From Flaccisagitta enflata (lineage: Eukaryota): a stretch of 64,000 nucleotides of DNA. The position numbers and the translations under genes were made by a program. Under the pieces are notes generated by a model. It was given only the letters and a program-made list of their open reading frames with translations. It searched no databases and was not told where the DNA came from. Positions 2,952 through 64,000 of this stretch are shown here, piece after piece; within the stretch, counting starts at the first letter, position 1; the number at the start of each line of letters is the position of its first letter. The DNA is taken from contig OZ231126.1 of the NCBI GenBank assembly GCA_965153355.1, forward strand, positions 40,238,001 through 40,302,000. Reading direction: 5' to 3'.

Positions 2952-3637
2952 GGGCAGCGGCCCCGAAGGGGACGAAGTCCTGTAGAACACAGGGGACTTT
3001 CGTTTGTTCGTTCGTTCGTTTGTTCGTTTGTTCGTCCGTCCGTTCGTTTGTCCCCCCCAGGCCCTCTCAGGCCTGAAATCTGCCCTCTCAGGCCTAAAAT
3101 CTGCCTTCTCAGGCCTGAAATCTGCCCTCTCAGGCCTTGAATCTGCCCTCTCAGGCCTGAAATTTGCCCTTTCAGTCCTGAAACCTGCCCTCTCAGGCTT
3201 AAAATCTGCCCTCTCAGGCCTTGAATCTACCCTCTCAGGCCTTGAATCTGCCCTCTCAAAACAAATTTCAGGCCTGAAACCTGCCCTCTCAGGCCTAAAA
3301 CCTGCCCTCTCAGGCCTAAAATCTGCCCTCTCAGGCCTAAAATCTGCCCTCTCAGGCCTGAAATCTGCCATCTCAGATTCAAGGCCTGAGAGAGCAGATT
3401 TTAAGCCTGAGAGGGCAGATTTTAGGCCAGAGAGGTCAGATTTCAGGCCTGAGAGGGCCTGGGGGGCGGACGGACGGACAGATGGATGGACGAACGAACG
3501 AACAAACAAAAGTCCCCCGTGTTCTACAGGACTTCGCCCCTTTCGGGGCCGCTGCCCTGCCTCTCATTCTGATTTACAACCAAGCAAAGCAGGGCAACGG
3601 GTATCGCTGACCACGTATTGCCCTTGGGCGACCTGTT
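2952..3637 (+). mobile_element. Family B element (long sub-terminal inverted repeats, inverted 21-bp arrays, asymmetric 3' tail)
   Basis: GGGCAGCGGCCCCGAAGGGGACGAAGTCCTGTAGAACAC is inverted at 3519-3557. The (CTCTCAGGCCTGAAATCTGCC)n array flips near 3378. Tail GCAGGGCAACGGGTATCGCTGACCAC...TGTT; T-run flanks. Related copies at 50145-50605 and 53400-53890(-). Confidence 0.8.
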
Positions 3638-3823
3638 CTCTCACACTCTCTCTCTCTCTCTCTCTCTCTCTCTCTCTCTCTCTCTCTCTCTCTCTCTCTC
3701 TCTCTTTCCCCGTTGCTTTCCCTTCCCCATCACCAAACCTAATCCCACCCCTACGCTTACCCCCGTGTACAGGCCTGCCATATTTCTTCTTAGACACGTG
3801 CGCGCGACTTTATAACCCACTCT

Positions 3824-5593
3824 TAGAGTTGAGAGTGACTCGGGTTTTCAATCACCACCGATTTTCAGGGATTTTCCCTTGCCACCACCGTTTTTCGGTT
3901 TTTTTCAGTGATTTTTACACTGTATCTGCTTATGGGGTTGTTCAGATGCATCATGCTGTATGAACTTTGAGCGCAATTAATCATCAGAACCTAATAACTA
4001 CCAATGTAATGAAAAAAGAAGTGCTAAATTGAATAGTTTTTTTTTTCAAATTGAGCAACAGACCTGAATGAAGATCAACAAGTGATGTGGGTTCACAAAT
4101 ATTGTTGGGGATGTGTGGGCATTGGCATCCAACCTAACTTGTGCTGACTGATGGACTGACTGATCGATGGACGGACAAAGCCTCTTTTAGAGTTGCTTGT
4201 CCGCAACTTTAAAAAAAATGTGCATGTTAAAACTTGTCAATCATTGATTTTTGTCTGAATGTTTACACATGAAAAAGTAAACCTCTAAGTTTCTTCTTTG
4301 AACAGGCTGGAAGTGGATAGGTTTTTTGCACTTTTATATTTCTTGAGTTTTCTATACGACCTTTGTTCCTGGTGCTACCAAACAGAGGAAAAGCATATCC
4401 TGTTCCTATACAGATTTACTGCGAGATGGCATTCTTGATGCCATGGTCAAAAGGATGATTCATACCTTTGAATAAAACAAGGCCGGATACACGGCTACCC
4501 CAGTCGCGTGCGGGTGGGCAGGGGCTGTATTTGAGGTCACTTCATTATTTGGGCAGAAGCAGTGAGGCAAAAGACCGCAAAAACCCAAAAAAAGGTAATG
4601 TGTGATGGATGGACGGACCAACGGACCGATGGAGGGACCGACAAAGCAGGGTATAGAGTCGCGTAGCACGCGACTAAAAAGGCCAACACATAAAAGTCGG
4701 GTGATGGACATAAATAACTTAGGATGACTCAAATTGACTCAAATTGACTTAAAATGACTTACACTGACTTAAAAAAACATAAAATAATGATAAATTGAGC
4801 AAATTGACTTAAGTGACTTGAAATAATGTAAATGACTTAAAATGACTTACAATGACTTCGAATGACTAAGAATGACATAGAATGTCTTAGAATGACTAGA
4901 AATGACCTAAAATGACTAAGAATAAGTAAAAGTAATATAAAAGATAAAGTTTGACCGACGGACGGACGGACCGATGGACGGACGGACGGACAAAGCGGAT
5001 TGTAGAGTCGCTTGCACGCGACTAAAAAAGTGATTTCTTATCTCAGTCAGTTTGCTACTTTCATTTTAATCTCTCTCTCTCTCTCTCTCTCTCTCTCTCT
5101 CTCTCTCTCTCTCTCTCTCTCTCTCTCTCTCTCTCTCTCTCTCTCTCTTTTTCTTTCTTGTACTTCTTCTGTCTTTCATTATTGGACTTGATCTCTTTTT
5201 CTTAATAACAGAATTGACAGTAGTGACACGCTCAATGAATACAAATACAGTAGTGAGGGAAAACATGATATCTTGAACTAAAGATATTGTTGTTATTTCT
5301 CAAGCTAGAAAAAACAAGAACTAGCTGAGTAAAACTGGTATCAGACACTGCTTTTTTGTCACCATGGTAACTGTAGAATAAGGGATTTAGATAATATGGA
5401 ATTTTTTCCTGCAAATTTCAAAGATTAACATGCGCACTTTCTTGAATATGATAGCAATTTCAGCAAAATGAAGGGCAGTTGGGGAAGGGAGAAAAAAACG
5501 GTGAAAAACCGAAAATCCAAATCACTGAATCAGTGAAAATTGGCATTCACTCCACCGTTTTTTCCGATGGTGAATCACCGAATCTCAAGCCTA
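3824..5593. mobile_element. hAT-like non-autonomous element nested in a family A element
   Basis: TAGAGTTGAGA...TCTCAAGCCTA termini; 8-bp flanks CCCACTCT/CCCACTAT. Removing it rejoins family A halves 3788-3823 and 5594-5778. Confidence 0.7.
4477..5027 (-). mobile_element. Two adjacent family A elements (short type 4477-4680; AATGACT-array type 4680-5027)
   Basis: AACAAGGCCGGATACACGGC...GAGTCGCGTAGCACGCGACTAAAAA, and a second terminus at 5005-5027. Confidence 0.78.
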
Positions 5594-61142: not shown

Positions 61143-61822
61143 TTTTAGTCGCGTGAACGCGACTCTAGAAGCCGCTGTCTGTCAGTCGGTCGGTCTGTCG
61201 GTTGGTCTGTCTGTCACATTTTTGAAATAAAGCGTAATTCTTCATTTTAAAGGTACTTAAGGGTACTTCTGAGTACTTAAAGATACTTTAGGGTACTTTA
61301 AGGTACATTAGATACTTAAGGGTACTTTAGGTACTTCAGGGTACTTAAGAGTACTCTAGATACTAAAGGTGTTTTGGATTAGAATGTCCGGCGGTCGCAT
61401 TAAGCTTGACCTCGATTCTATCCTATAAGGGTATGGTTTCTTAACAATGTTACCCTTGGGTGTTTTGTTGAACTTTGGTTAAAAAAGTAACAATTATTGC
61501 CCTAACTACTTTTGGTAAGCAGTTTGCTTTTGGGTTAGATTGAGAAGGAATGTTTTTCAGATTCTGTTTTATGGAAAACTAGGAGTGGTGCGCGTGTTAA
61601 CTAGTCAGTGAGGGTTCACAAGGCCCTCTTCCATCTCTTTCAGTTTGGGTATAGTGAGGGATATTGTTCCACTTTTCATAGTACTTTAGGATACTTCAGG
61701 ATACTTTAGGATACTTTAGGGTACTTTAGGTCCTTTAGGGTACTTTAGGGGTACATTAGGTACTTAAGGATGCTTTGGGGTACTTAAGGGTACTTTAGGT
61801 ACTCTAGGGTACTTTAGGCTAC
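61143..61822 (+). mobile_element. Family A 5' part with a (GGTACTTTAG)-like 10-11 bp array
   Basis: TTTTAGTCGCGTGAACGCGACT, (GTCG/GTCT)n, array at 61250-61370 and 61680-61822. Confidence 0.7.
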
Positions 61823-64000
61823 TTTTTGGGCAGCGGCCCCGAAGGCCCTTTAAGGCTTTTTAAGGAAGGCCCTTTGAGGAAGGTCCTTTGAGGCCCTTTA
61901 AGACCCTTTTAGGCCCTTTAAGGCCCTTTAAGGCCCTATGAGGCCCTTTAAGGAAGGCCCTTTGAGGCCCTTTAAGGCCCTTTAAGGCCCTTTAAGACCC
62001 TTTAAGGCCCTTTAAAGCCCTTTAAGGCCCTTTCAGGGAGGCCTTTAAGGAAGGCCCTTTAAGGCCCTTTAAGGCCCTTTCAGGCCCTTTAAGGCCCTTC
62101 AAGGCCCTTTAAAGTCCTTTAAGGCCCTTTAAGGCCCTTTAAGGCCCTTTAAGGAAGGCCCTTTAAGGAAGGCCCTTTGAGGCCCTTTAAGGCCCTTTAA
62201 AGCCCTTTAAGGCCCTTTAAGGAAGGCCCTTTAAGGAAGGTCCTTTGAGGCCCTTTAAGGCCCTTTAAGGCCCTTTAAGGAAGGCCCTTTCAGGAAGGCC
62301 CTTTAAGGAAGGCCATTTAAGGCCCTTTAAGGCCCTTTAAGGACGGTCCTTTAAGGAAGGCCCTTTGAGGCCCTTTAAGGCCCTTTAAGGCCCTTTAAGG
62401 CCTTTTAAGGAAGGCCCTTTGAGGAAGGTCCTTTGAGGCCCTTTAACCCCTTTTAGGCCCTTTAAGGCCCTTTAAGGCCCTTTAAGGCCCTTTAAGGCCC
62501 TTTAAGGCCCTTTAACGAGGCCCTTTAAGGAAGGCCCTTTAAGGCCCTTTAAGGCCCTTTAAGGCCCTTTAAGGCCCTTTAACGAAGGCCCTTTAAGGAA
62601 GGCCCTTTGAGGCCCTTTAAGGCCCTTTTAGGCCCTTTAAGGTCCTTTAAGGCCCTTTAAAGCCCTTTAACGCCCTTTAAGGCCCATTAAGGAAGGCCCT
62701 TTAAGGAAGGCCCTTTAAGGCCCTTTAAGGCCCATTAAGGAAGGCCCTTTAAGGAAGGCCCTTTAAGGCCCTTTAAAGCCCTTTAAGGCCCTTTGAGGCC
62801 CTTTAAGGCCCTCTAAGGAAGGCCTTTAAGGGAGGCCCTTTAAGGCCCTTTAAGGCCCCTTAAGGCCCTTTATGGCCCTTTAAAGCCCTTTGAGGCCCTT
62901 TAAAGCCCTTTGAGGCCCTTTAAGGCCCTTTAAGGCCCTTTAAGGAAGGCCCTTTAAGGCCCTTTAAGGCCCTTTAAGGCCCTTTAAGGCCCTATAAGAC
63001 CCTTTAAGGCCCTTCAGCGCCCTATAAGGCCCTTTAAGGAAGGCCCTTTGAGGCCCTTTAAGGCCCTTTAAGGCCCTTTAAGACCCTTTAAGGCCCTTTA
63101 AGGCCCTTTAAGGCTTTTTAAGGCCCTTTAAGGAAGGCCCTTTAAGGAAGGCCCTTTAAGGCCCTTTAAGGCCCTTTAAGACCCTTTAAGGCCCTTTAAG
63201 GCCCTATAAGACCCTTTAAGGCCCTTTAAGGCCCTATTAGGCACTTTAAGGAAGGCCCTTTGAGGCCCTTTAAGGCCCTTTAAGGCCCTTTAAGACCCTT
63301 TAAGGCCCTTTAAGGCCCTTTAAAGCCCTTTAGGCCCTTTCAGGGAGGCCTTTTAAGGCCCTTTAAGGCCCTTTAAAGCCCTTCAAGGCCCTTTAGGCCC
63401 TTTAAGGCCCTTTAAGGCCCTTTAAAGCCCTTCAAGGCCCTTTGAGGAAGACCCTTTGAGGAAGGCCCTTTGAGGCCCTTTAAGGCCCTTTAAGGCCCTT
63501 TAAGGCCCTTTAAGGCCATTTAAGGCCCTTTAAGGCCCTTTTGGGCAGCGTCCCCAAAGGGGCCGATGACCTATGCTTTCACACATAGGGGAAATTTCTC
63601 CTTCTTCTCCTTCTTCTTCTCCTACGTCCCCACCTCTTCAAGGCCCAAATCAAAGTCTCAAGACCCAAATCCTAGCTTTGAGGCTCAAATTCCCGCTTCA
63701 AAGCTCAAATCCCAGCCTTGAGGCTCAAATCTCAGTCTCCAGGCTAAAATCCCAGCCTCGAGGCTGAAATCCCAGCCCTTAGGCTCAAGGCACAAATCCC
63801 AGCCTTGAAGTCAAATCCTAGCCTCGAAGCTCAAATCCCAGCTTCAAAGCTCAAATCCCACCCCCAAAGCTCAAATCCCAACCTCAAAGCTCAGATCCCA
63901 GCCTCGAAGCTCAAATCCCAGCCTCGAAGCTCTAATCTCAGCCTTGAAGCTGAAATCACAGCCTTGAAGCTCAAATCCCAGCCTCAAGGCCCTTATCCAA

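Follow-up and report, generated by a model that had tools for sequence, protein, structure and literature searches.

Tandem arrays of helical length in HINE-type Helentrons of Flaccisagitta enflata: a peak probably shaped by few founders more than by convergence

The stretch of DNA analysed here, 64,000 nucleotides of Flaccisagitta enflata (contig OZ231126.1 of assembly GCA_965153355.1; C1:40238001-40302000, in the following called the window), holds copies of two families of short mobile elements, A and B, several of which enclose arrays of short tandem repeats (cargo), together with a 10-bp satellite built on TAAGGCCCTT and further arrays (Table 1). Both families are non-autonomous Helentrons of the HINE type that are present in thousands of copies. 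An earlier note on this DNA had proposed that their arrays, unrelated in sequence, converge on one or two turns of the double helix (10-11 or 20-21 bp), and that the period rather than the sequence is constrained. The nine units it named are all present with the periods it gave, as determined with Tandem Repeats Finder, and the excess of these periods recurs in an independent sample of the genome. The evidence as a whole leans towards a few founder units, generated by slippage and spread by rolling-circle amplification, so that the peak at 10-11 and 20-21 bp would mostly mirror genealogy and not repeated convergence.

The assembly (G000) comprises 794 Mb in 9 contigs. The whole window was read, arrays were called with Tandem Repeats Finder and element ends were mapped; 80 systematically placed 10-kb regions on all nine contigs (L031-L110) served as independent test set, and extra loci were taken around B heads (30), around one A tail (30) and from metagenome contigs containing an exact A head (13). 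Periods of 10, 11, 20 and 21 bp are called helical. This set was picked from the same lineages as those tested, and unit types that the earlier note had not seen were therefore counted separately. The array census was restricted to periods of ≥7 bp and ≥4 copies with microsatellite-like arrays removed, and arrays were assigned to cargo by lineage (k-mer families merged manually), not by checking each array between two ends. Units were compared in 190 pairs with ≤60 shuffles each. A loose tail pattern produced spurious 35-bp 'elements', which were ignored, and stricter patterns were used for the end-distance work.

The head of family A is the palindrome AGTCGCG..CGCGACT, a 5' subterminal inverted repeat (subTIR) with a nearby inverted repeat (IR), which occurs in the covarying variants AGTTGCG, AGATGCG and AGGTGCG and is followed by a GTCY-type microsatellite. 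One head variant has 16,334 exact matches genome-wide and its reversed control 0; no A head was found in the viral contig collection. The 3' end consists of CACGCGACT, a hairpin and CCTTGT (84 matches vs 3 in the reversed control), and the T1-type tail has 8,821 exact matches. Copies at the loci around the T1 tail have T flanks at both ends, and one empty/filled pair of sites (33450 vs 43486) documents insertion into a T run without target-site duplication. This anatomy matches the definition of HINEs, as far as the parts of PMC4067079 and PMC7492417 used here describe it, and bears out the identity proposed by the earlier note. Most A copies are array-less: 73 of 105 are at most 200 bp long, and no array is found in any below 217 bp.

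Family B, parsed in 57 elements (one row being a parsing error and two chimeric), has the head GGGCAGCGG, the 3' end CCGCTGACC and a hairpin with compensatory variants, with T-run flanks in nearly all copies. Its head/IR pattern, which occurs twice per complete element, has 5,881 exact matches genome-wide. The B IR is a foldback arm of 40-45 bp that lies 304-780 bp from the head, beyond the array, rather than within ~1-22 bp of the 5' subTIR; since some HINEs are described without any IR (PMC4067079, in part), this placement marks a HINE variant and does not exclude B from the group. Arrays of 20/21-mers are found in 50 of the 57 parsed elements, and six have no array. Seven B units of G000, including the three known to the earlier note, align column by column with 9-19 identical columns of 20-21, and to judge from these alignments all B 20/21-mers descend from one ancestral unit.

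Table 1. Elements and arrays of the window (positions counted from its first letter; a point marks features without orientation).
Feature	Position	Strand	Arrays and details
B1 HINE with 5' subTIR/head and GTCY microsatellite	2952..3636	+	21-bp array 3061-3376; inverted arm 3374-3458; long IR 3515-3557; 3' subTIR and hairpin 3599-3636
Two A HINEs, head-to-tail	4477..5025	-	right one with GTCATT 10-bp array 4712-4917
G-rich 80-bp array	7834..9840	.	adjoins microsatellite of headless A element
Long A element	9844..11872	+	10-bp array 9897-10544, then 11-bp array 10596-11792; T1 tail 11847-11871; head missing
Short A element	12349..12550	+	10-bp array 12465-12527; tail truncated
140-bp array, outside elements	26548..27071	.	
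22-mer array, outside A/B ends	30519		
11-bp array, outside any A/B ends	33202..33393	.	18 copies; second copy 43218-43420
A-type HINE, AGGTGCG subfamily	35902..36679	+	21-bp GATAG array 36248-36621
A element with nested AATACCCGAGC repeat	39301..40090	-	11-bp array 39383-39933; second copy 44892-45521 (array 44974-45359)
B1 HINE	40811..41610	+	20-bp array 40920-41069, then 21-bp array 41105-41305; second copy 52569-53345
A HINE without array, inside T run	43486..43681	+	empty paralogous site near 33450
B2 remnants, arrays of 20 bp	45999..46880	+	array 45999-46575
TAAGGCCCTT satellite, 10 bp, outside element ends	47750..51582, 56143-56688, 58109-58775, 59748-60367, 61880-63541	.	
B1 HINE	53398..53885	-	21-bp arrays 53565-53765
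B3 HINE	54239..54930	+	21-bp array 54349-54789
Three B2 copies	57124..60854	-	20-bp arrays 57246-57985, 58904-59622, 60486-60854
A head followed by GGTAC 10-bp arrays	61145..61825	+	61247-61355, 61681-61825
B2 head at satellite T run	63543..64000	+	20-bp array 63666-63985, continues past window edge

In family A the main cargo also appears to be connected. At the 30 T1-tail loci a 10-mer occurs in 27, an 11-mer in 10 and a 14-mer in 9, and these belong to one long A lineage in which the 10-mer is followed by the 14-mer and the 11-mer; TTTAAGTC is common to them, and an 8-mer is found in the same slot as the 10-mer. Judged by slot and motif, the 10-, 11-, 14- and 8-mers look like one lineage. 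The description of the arrays as sequence-unrelated thus has to be given up for the B units and for the A 10- and 11-mer, which share TTTAAGTC and stand consecutively in one element. Common descent from one ancestor, which the earlier note had named as the outcome that would speak against it, is found for all B cargo and probably also links the main cargo of A. When pairs of units were tested against shuffles, p<=0.05 was reached by 16 of the 190 (~9 expected), seven of them B-B pairs, and A10 vs A11 gives p=0.066.

Several arrays that had been counted as cargo lie elsewhere. The AATACCCGAGC array is found outside A heads in two regions (L040 and L052) and is therefore another repeat that is merely nested in A here. 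The GGTAC arrays are preceded by an A head, but mapping of ends in the window found no A tail after it (61247-61825). The TAAGGCCCTT satellite, which had been grouped with the element arrays, lies outside the ends and serves B copies as a local target for insertion, not as cargo: B heads stand at its T runs at 59746, at 63543 and in L157, and the B2 copies in 57124..60854 alternate with it in tandem B2+satellite blocks. It occurs in none of the 80 sample regions; among 40 scored candidates, and the first 150 of 190 matches, it clusters at C1:40.20-40.34 Mb with one further site on C4. A relation to the B units is suggestive only (8/10-type score, p=0.016 with 60 shuffles, one of 190 pairs). 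The satellite changes orientation at 56480 of the window, and inverted copies of a non-array segment (51583-52100 and 55750-56142) bracket the 52-56 kb part inside it. Nor are arrays outside the elements limited to periods of 80 and 140 bp, as had been stated, since besides the 10-bp satellite the arrays outside include 11-bp ones (33202-33393, 43218-43420) and a 22-mer (30519), and the 80-mer adjoins a headless A element.

At copy level the helical excess is clear. The sample regions contain 217 arrays, 110 with a helical period, and 85 of 97 cargo-lineage arrays vs 25 of 120 others are helical; the pattern is thus genome-wide. Counted by lineage, 5 of 8 cargo lineages vs 16 of 60 outside families with periods of <=33 bp are helical (p=0.053), and merging one or two lineages shifts this to p=0.11-0.23 (0.05-0.12 when all periods are counted). 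Cargo units new to this analysis are helical in 4 of 12 cases (p=0.44; in G000 alone 2 of 9), and off-period cargo of 8, 9, 12, 14, 16, 19, 25 and 28 bp is present. With lineage-level and out-of-sample tests not significant and neutral drift fitting the data, the claim that the period rather than the sequence is constrained is not upheld.

Neutral drift in length, starting from founders of 10 and 21 bp, fits the unit lengths seen. Inside arrays the ratio of indels to substitutions is 293/1199 (0.24) for A and 151/1623 (0.09) for B, and in a simple star-tree simulation of neutral length drift the share of tips that stay helical is 54-73% for A and 74-86% for B; 6 of the 9 A-slot-type units belong to the helical set. 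The most likely account is the following. Intact RepHel proteins would move A and B in trans, the pairing of protein and family being presumed; a handful of short tandem units would have arisen inside the elements by slippage or when rolling-circle synthesis switched template, and 7-8 bp of a subfamily's own end may have been the seed of some A units; the two biggest founders would have happened to be ~10 bp (A slot) and ~21 bp (B slot) long; units would then have diverged, chiefly by substitution and now and then in length (8, 9, 11, 14, 20, 25, 28), while the lineages that succeeded reached thousands of copies through transposition. Since the arrays trace to few ancestral repeats copied thousands of times, a true constraint on length is only possible.

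Several results weigh against descent from few founders as the whole explanation. With all periods counted, the lineage test gives 5 of 8 vs 16 of 80 (p=0.017). Families found at several loci are helical in 7 of 9 cases and single-locus families in 14 of 59 (p=0.003), and after relatives are merged the dispersed families still show 6-7 of 8 vs 13 of 58; half of these families are lineages of the earlier note itself, and among the new ones 2-3 of 4 are helical (p=0.24 or 0.05). Identity among first-slot A 10-mers (4-7/10) does not exceed that of shuffles, yet 10 bp is kept despite plentiful 9-bp variants. They could accordingly not be established as provable homologues, and their relatedness rests on slot position and a 64-71% alignment of whole elements in one lineage pair. 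A related organism represented by metagenome contigs, which matches G000 only over short stretches or at 64-80% identity, apparently just in repeats, carries a new 10-mer, TTTTCACAAG, in the A slot (4 contigs, 2 distinct insertions), and its B-type elements carry a 21-mer of changed sequence, with a related 25-mer in the same contig. A units have 7-8 bp in common with the ends of their own subfamily above shuffles (combined p=0.0007, 5 units, post hoc), as in the 21-bp GATAG unit (36248-36621) that shares 8 bp with the AGGTGCG subfamily head, and should separate A units have sprung from the ends of their own elements, their origins would be independent and convergence strengthened. A weak length bias beside genealogy is therefore possible, kept alive by the dispersed-family excess. 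Derivation of B units from B ends was considered as well and dropped (combined p=0.34), as was the idea that 20/21-mers are dimers of 10-mers, with half-vs-half identity above shuffles in only 1 of 6 units.

Such a bias could take the form of element-level selection or of mutation keeping cargo near integral helical turns, with phased T/A tracts that bend or soften the DNA, which we regard as tenable but unlikely; it is similarly doubtful that bent or soft cargo would ease circle formation or resist silencing in the manner of periodic An/Tn clusters (PATCs), so that helical lineages spread better. Apart from the dispersed families being mostly helical, this finds support in the retention of unit length in the second organism, in the precedent of Helitron minisatellites of C. 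elegans (bioRxiv 10.64898/2026.08.08.743475, in part) and in predicted bending. A crude A-tract vector sum, taking 18 deg per tract, predicts 55 deg per 100 bp for A10, 52 for TTAACA and 57 for B, near the genomic 90th percentile of 54 (background median 26), and no cargo lineages are more abundant than A10 and B. The bending suggested by the earlier note is thus predicted for three of ten array classes, but in the other seven (A11, A14, GGTAC, GATAG, ATACCC, ATTATAGG and the satellite) it is at or below shuffled controls. Of 15 element-associated units only 2 exceed shuffles in the phasing of A/T versus G/C (W/S) or of A tracts, the B 21-mer of the related organism has no A tract, and out-of-sample units are not enriched. 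A10 arrays, with 156 intervals of 9 bp vs 590 of 10 bp, do not hold phase and drift to a mean <10 bp; the TAAGGCCCTT satellite (29 steps of 14 bp vs 110 of 10 bp) does not hold phase either, its W/S phasing giving p=0.033. For nucleosome phasing, the third mechanism suggested by the earlier note, no MNase or ATAC library was evident among 24 listed runs, 10 of which carry no library description.

We consider it improbable that the arrays are iteron-like multimers presenting a protein-binding motif on one helix face to RepHel or a host factor, and equally so that this motif would be a GGCC-centred palindrome in B and pieces of the ends in A. The related organism keeps CTCAGGCCTG and the 21-bp spacing of G000 in its B 21-mer with the other 11 bp changed, and the end-derived stretches of the A units would agree with such a role; B units, however, are unlike B ends, most A copies are array-less yet abundant, and a free 4-bp microsatellite separates head and array. 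Head-to-tail distances show no phasing at 10-10.5 bp (A n=105, B n=54), the best of 9 periods each in a Rayleigh test being 11 for A, where p=0.03 loses significance once multiple testing is allowed for, and same-face protein binding as suggested by the earlier note finds no support in the end distances. A preference of Tandem Repeats Finder or of the assembly for these periods is most unlikely to be the cause. Outside families do have a small peak at 10 (7/80) and assembly indel noise is visible in long arrays, but every period from 7 to 24 was found outside elements in the same run, independent metagenome contigs agree, and anchor-to-anchor distances directly give 10, 11, 20 and 21, which largely refutes an artefact.

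A candidate for the autonomous partner lies close by. A search for Rep gave 150 scored matches, many within frames of 2,000-3,600 aa, and dozens of such intact frames exist in the genome. An intact open reading frame (ORF) of 2,894 aa (C1:40309421-40318105; L141, L142), 7.4 kb right of the window, has an N-terminal GDSL-like match, Rep, PIF1, a weak endonuclease match and a C-terminal UCH domain. Downstream, its Helentron family carries an A copy nested in it, an array of 19-bp units (in 10 copies of the family) and a B2-type block (in at least 6). The 19-bp array, of ~27 units, stands in the Helentron 3' region (L142 6345-6893; L156 2029-2551), and related clusters lie on C8 (13.13-13.27 Mb) and C4 (2.4-2.5 Mb), apparently as a satellite that stems from this array. 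The downstream block (L156 1-1640; L157 1-230) is several kb long and consists of B2-type 20-mers with reiterated fused IR/subTIR motifs in higher-order repeats of 193-259 bp; in the copy next to the window it stops at a B2 head that lies in the satellite, the mirror of the head at 63543, so that two inverted B2 heads 22 kb apart flank the 2,894-aa ORF. The block may be the Helentron's own end or a nested insertion, and the Helentron is at most a candidate for an autonomous partner sharing A/B ends. That the L157 head marks the Helentron end throughout the family was rejected: it matches the 63543 copy of the window best, and the 40 candidates scored include no other member of the family. Window 60856-61091 was likewise rejected as the upstream end of an autonomous element, as it belongs to a separate, young (98-99% identical) tandem family of ~975 bp with arrays on C1, C5 and C9 and clustered copies on C3 and C6.

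Further observations concern the surroundings of the elements. At C1:3.625-3.649 Mb and in L014, whole A elements are repeated every 2.0-2.8 kb and B elements form tandem rows in which a short flank recurs, the arrangement to be expected if rolling-circle replication reads through. A foldback element of ~140 bp resembling a miniature inverted-repeat transposable element (window 39734-39868; L142 5340-5470) occurs on all nine contigs and is nested both in an A element and in the Helentron. A 13-bp array (L044 3549-3647 and 4259-4420; L133; L088; L108) resembles a reiterated A-type 3' end with a subTIR-like motif before it. G-rich arrays of diverged units with common motifs were found in the window (7834-9840, 80 bp), in L071 (7560-8102, 80), L065 (6844-8429, 80), L033 (4713-6558, 81) and L079 (1731-4894, 112); four of the five directly adjoin truncated A or B ends, the one in L033 follows a degenerate A head, and a period of 80-81 bp is common to four different array sequences. 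The window also contains two duplicated blocks, ~31690-33870 vs 41680-43950 and 38790-40300 vs 44820-45900; in the former, a spliced-looking short coding region stops just before the 11-bp array.

Fixed ends with swappable cargo, the organization proposed by the earlier note, are supported here and have already been described for Cg_HINE of Crassostrea gigas (PMC7492417, in part), which likewise has a 5' subTIR with IR, a GTCY microsatellite, a central tandem array and a 3' subTIR with palindrome. Related flanks with unrelated or differing arrays, two consecutive arrays and a narrow range of unit lengths are thus known from the oyster; its units, however, measure 140-180 bp and are nucleosomal (only 100-500 bp were searched there) vs 8-28 bp here, and its IR lies 1-12 bp from the head, whereas that of B lies 300-780 bp away, beyond the array. 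DINE-1/HINE-Mo and Helentrons (PMC4067079, in part) share subTIRs, 3' palindrome, microsatellite, T-rich target, lack of target modification and optional central repeats, but the part of the description compared mentions no helical-length cargo for DINE-1/HINE-Mo. Helitron-derived PATCs of C. elegans, in a preprint that also cites the oyster Helitron satellites (bioRxiv 10.64898/2026.08.08.743475, in part), are rolling-circle minisatellites as well, reaching ~10-bp periodicity with phased A/T tracts and a proposed mechanical role; unlike here, the consensus lacks the 10-bp signal, which a 35-bp unit gains once inserted, whereas in F. enflata the unit itself measures 10/11/20/21 bp and is copied with the element, and a function that was tested in C. 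elegans is hypothetical in our case. The foldback shape of B recalls Drosophila Foldback (FB), whose long inverted arms contain internal tandem modules (PMC2955051, in part). FB is a terminal inverted repeat element, whereas B has a constant 3' subTIR and hairpin tail outside the inverted arms. Foldback units measure 10, 20 and 31 bp; these sizes did not appear in the literature searched. Widlund et al. in 1999 reportedly described a 10-bp nucleosome-positioning repeat. Its alternating A/T and G/C half-turns are seen also in the sequence of the TAAGGCCCTT satellite, but it is not transposon cargo. A literature search that covered few subscription papers found no report of HINEs with a copied unit of itself 10 or 21 bp, and the new parts are therefore the 10/21-bp copied units and the foldback layout of B.

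There is some chance, which we rate as low, that DNA geometry filters rolling-circle transposons in this lineage: one- and two-turn units, born several times and in part from the elements' own ends, would out-replicate off-period ones, and the period would survive near-complete turnover of the sequence across species. If true, PATC-like mechanics would be used by the mobile element itself and not be co-opted by the host. A constrained period would make these families a natural experiment in which intact transposases and tens of thousands of copies are at hand and the same ends enclose on- as well as off-period cargo, which could test DNA shape vs sequence in the spread of repeats as well as the preferred unit lengths of satellites. 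If the period is unconstrained, A and B are a clean case of Helentrons dispersing minisatellites of 10-21 bp, shorter than the nucleosome-size cargo of the oyster, and they warn that convergence can look stronger than it is when copies are counted.

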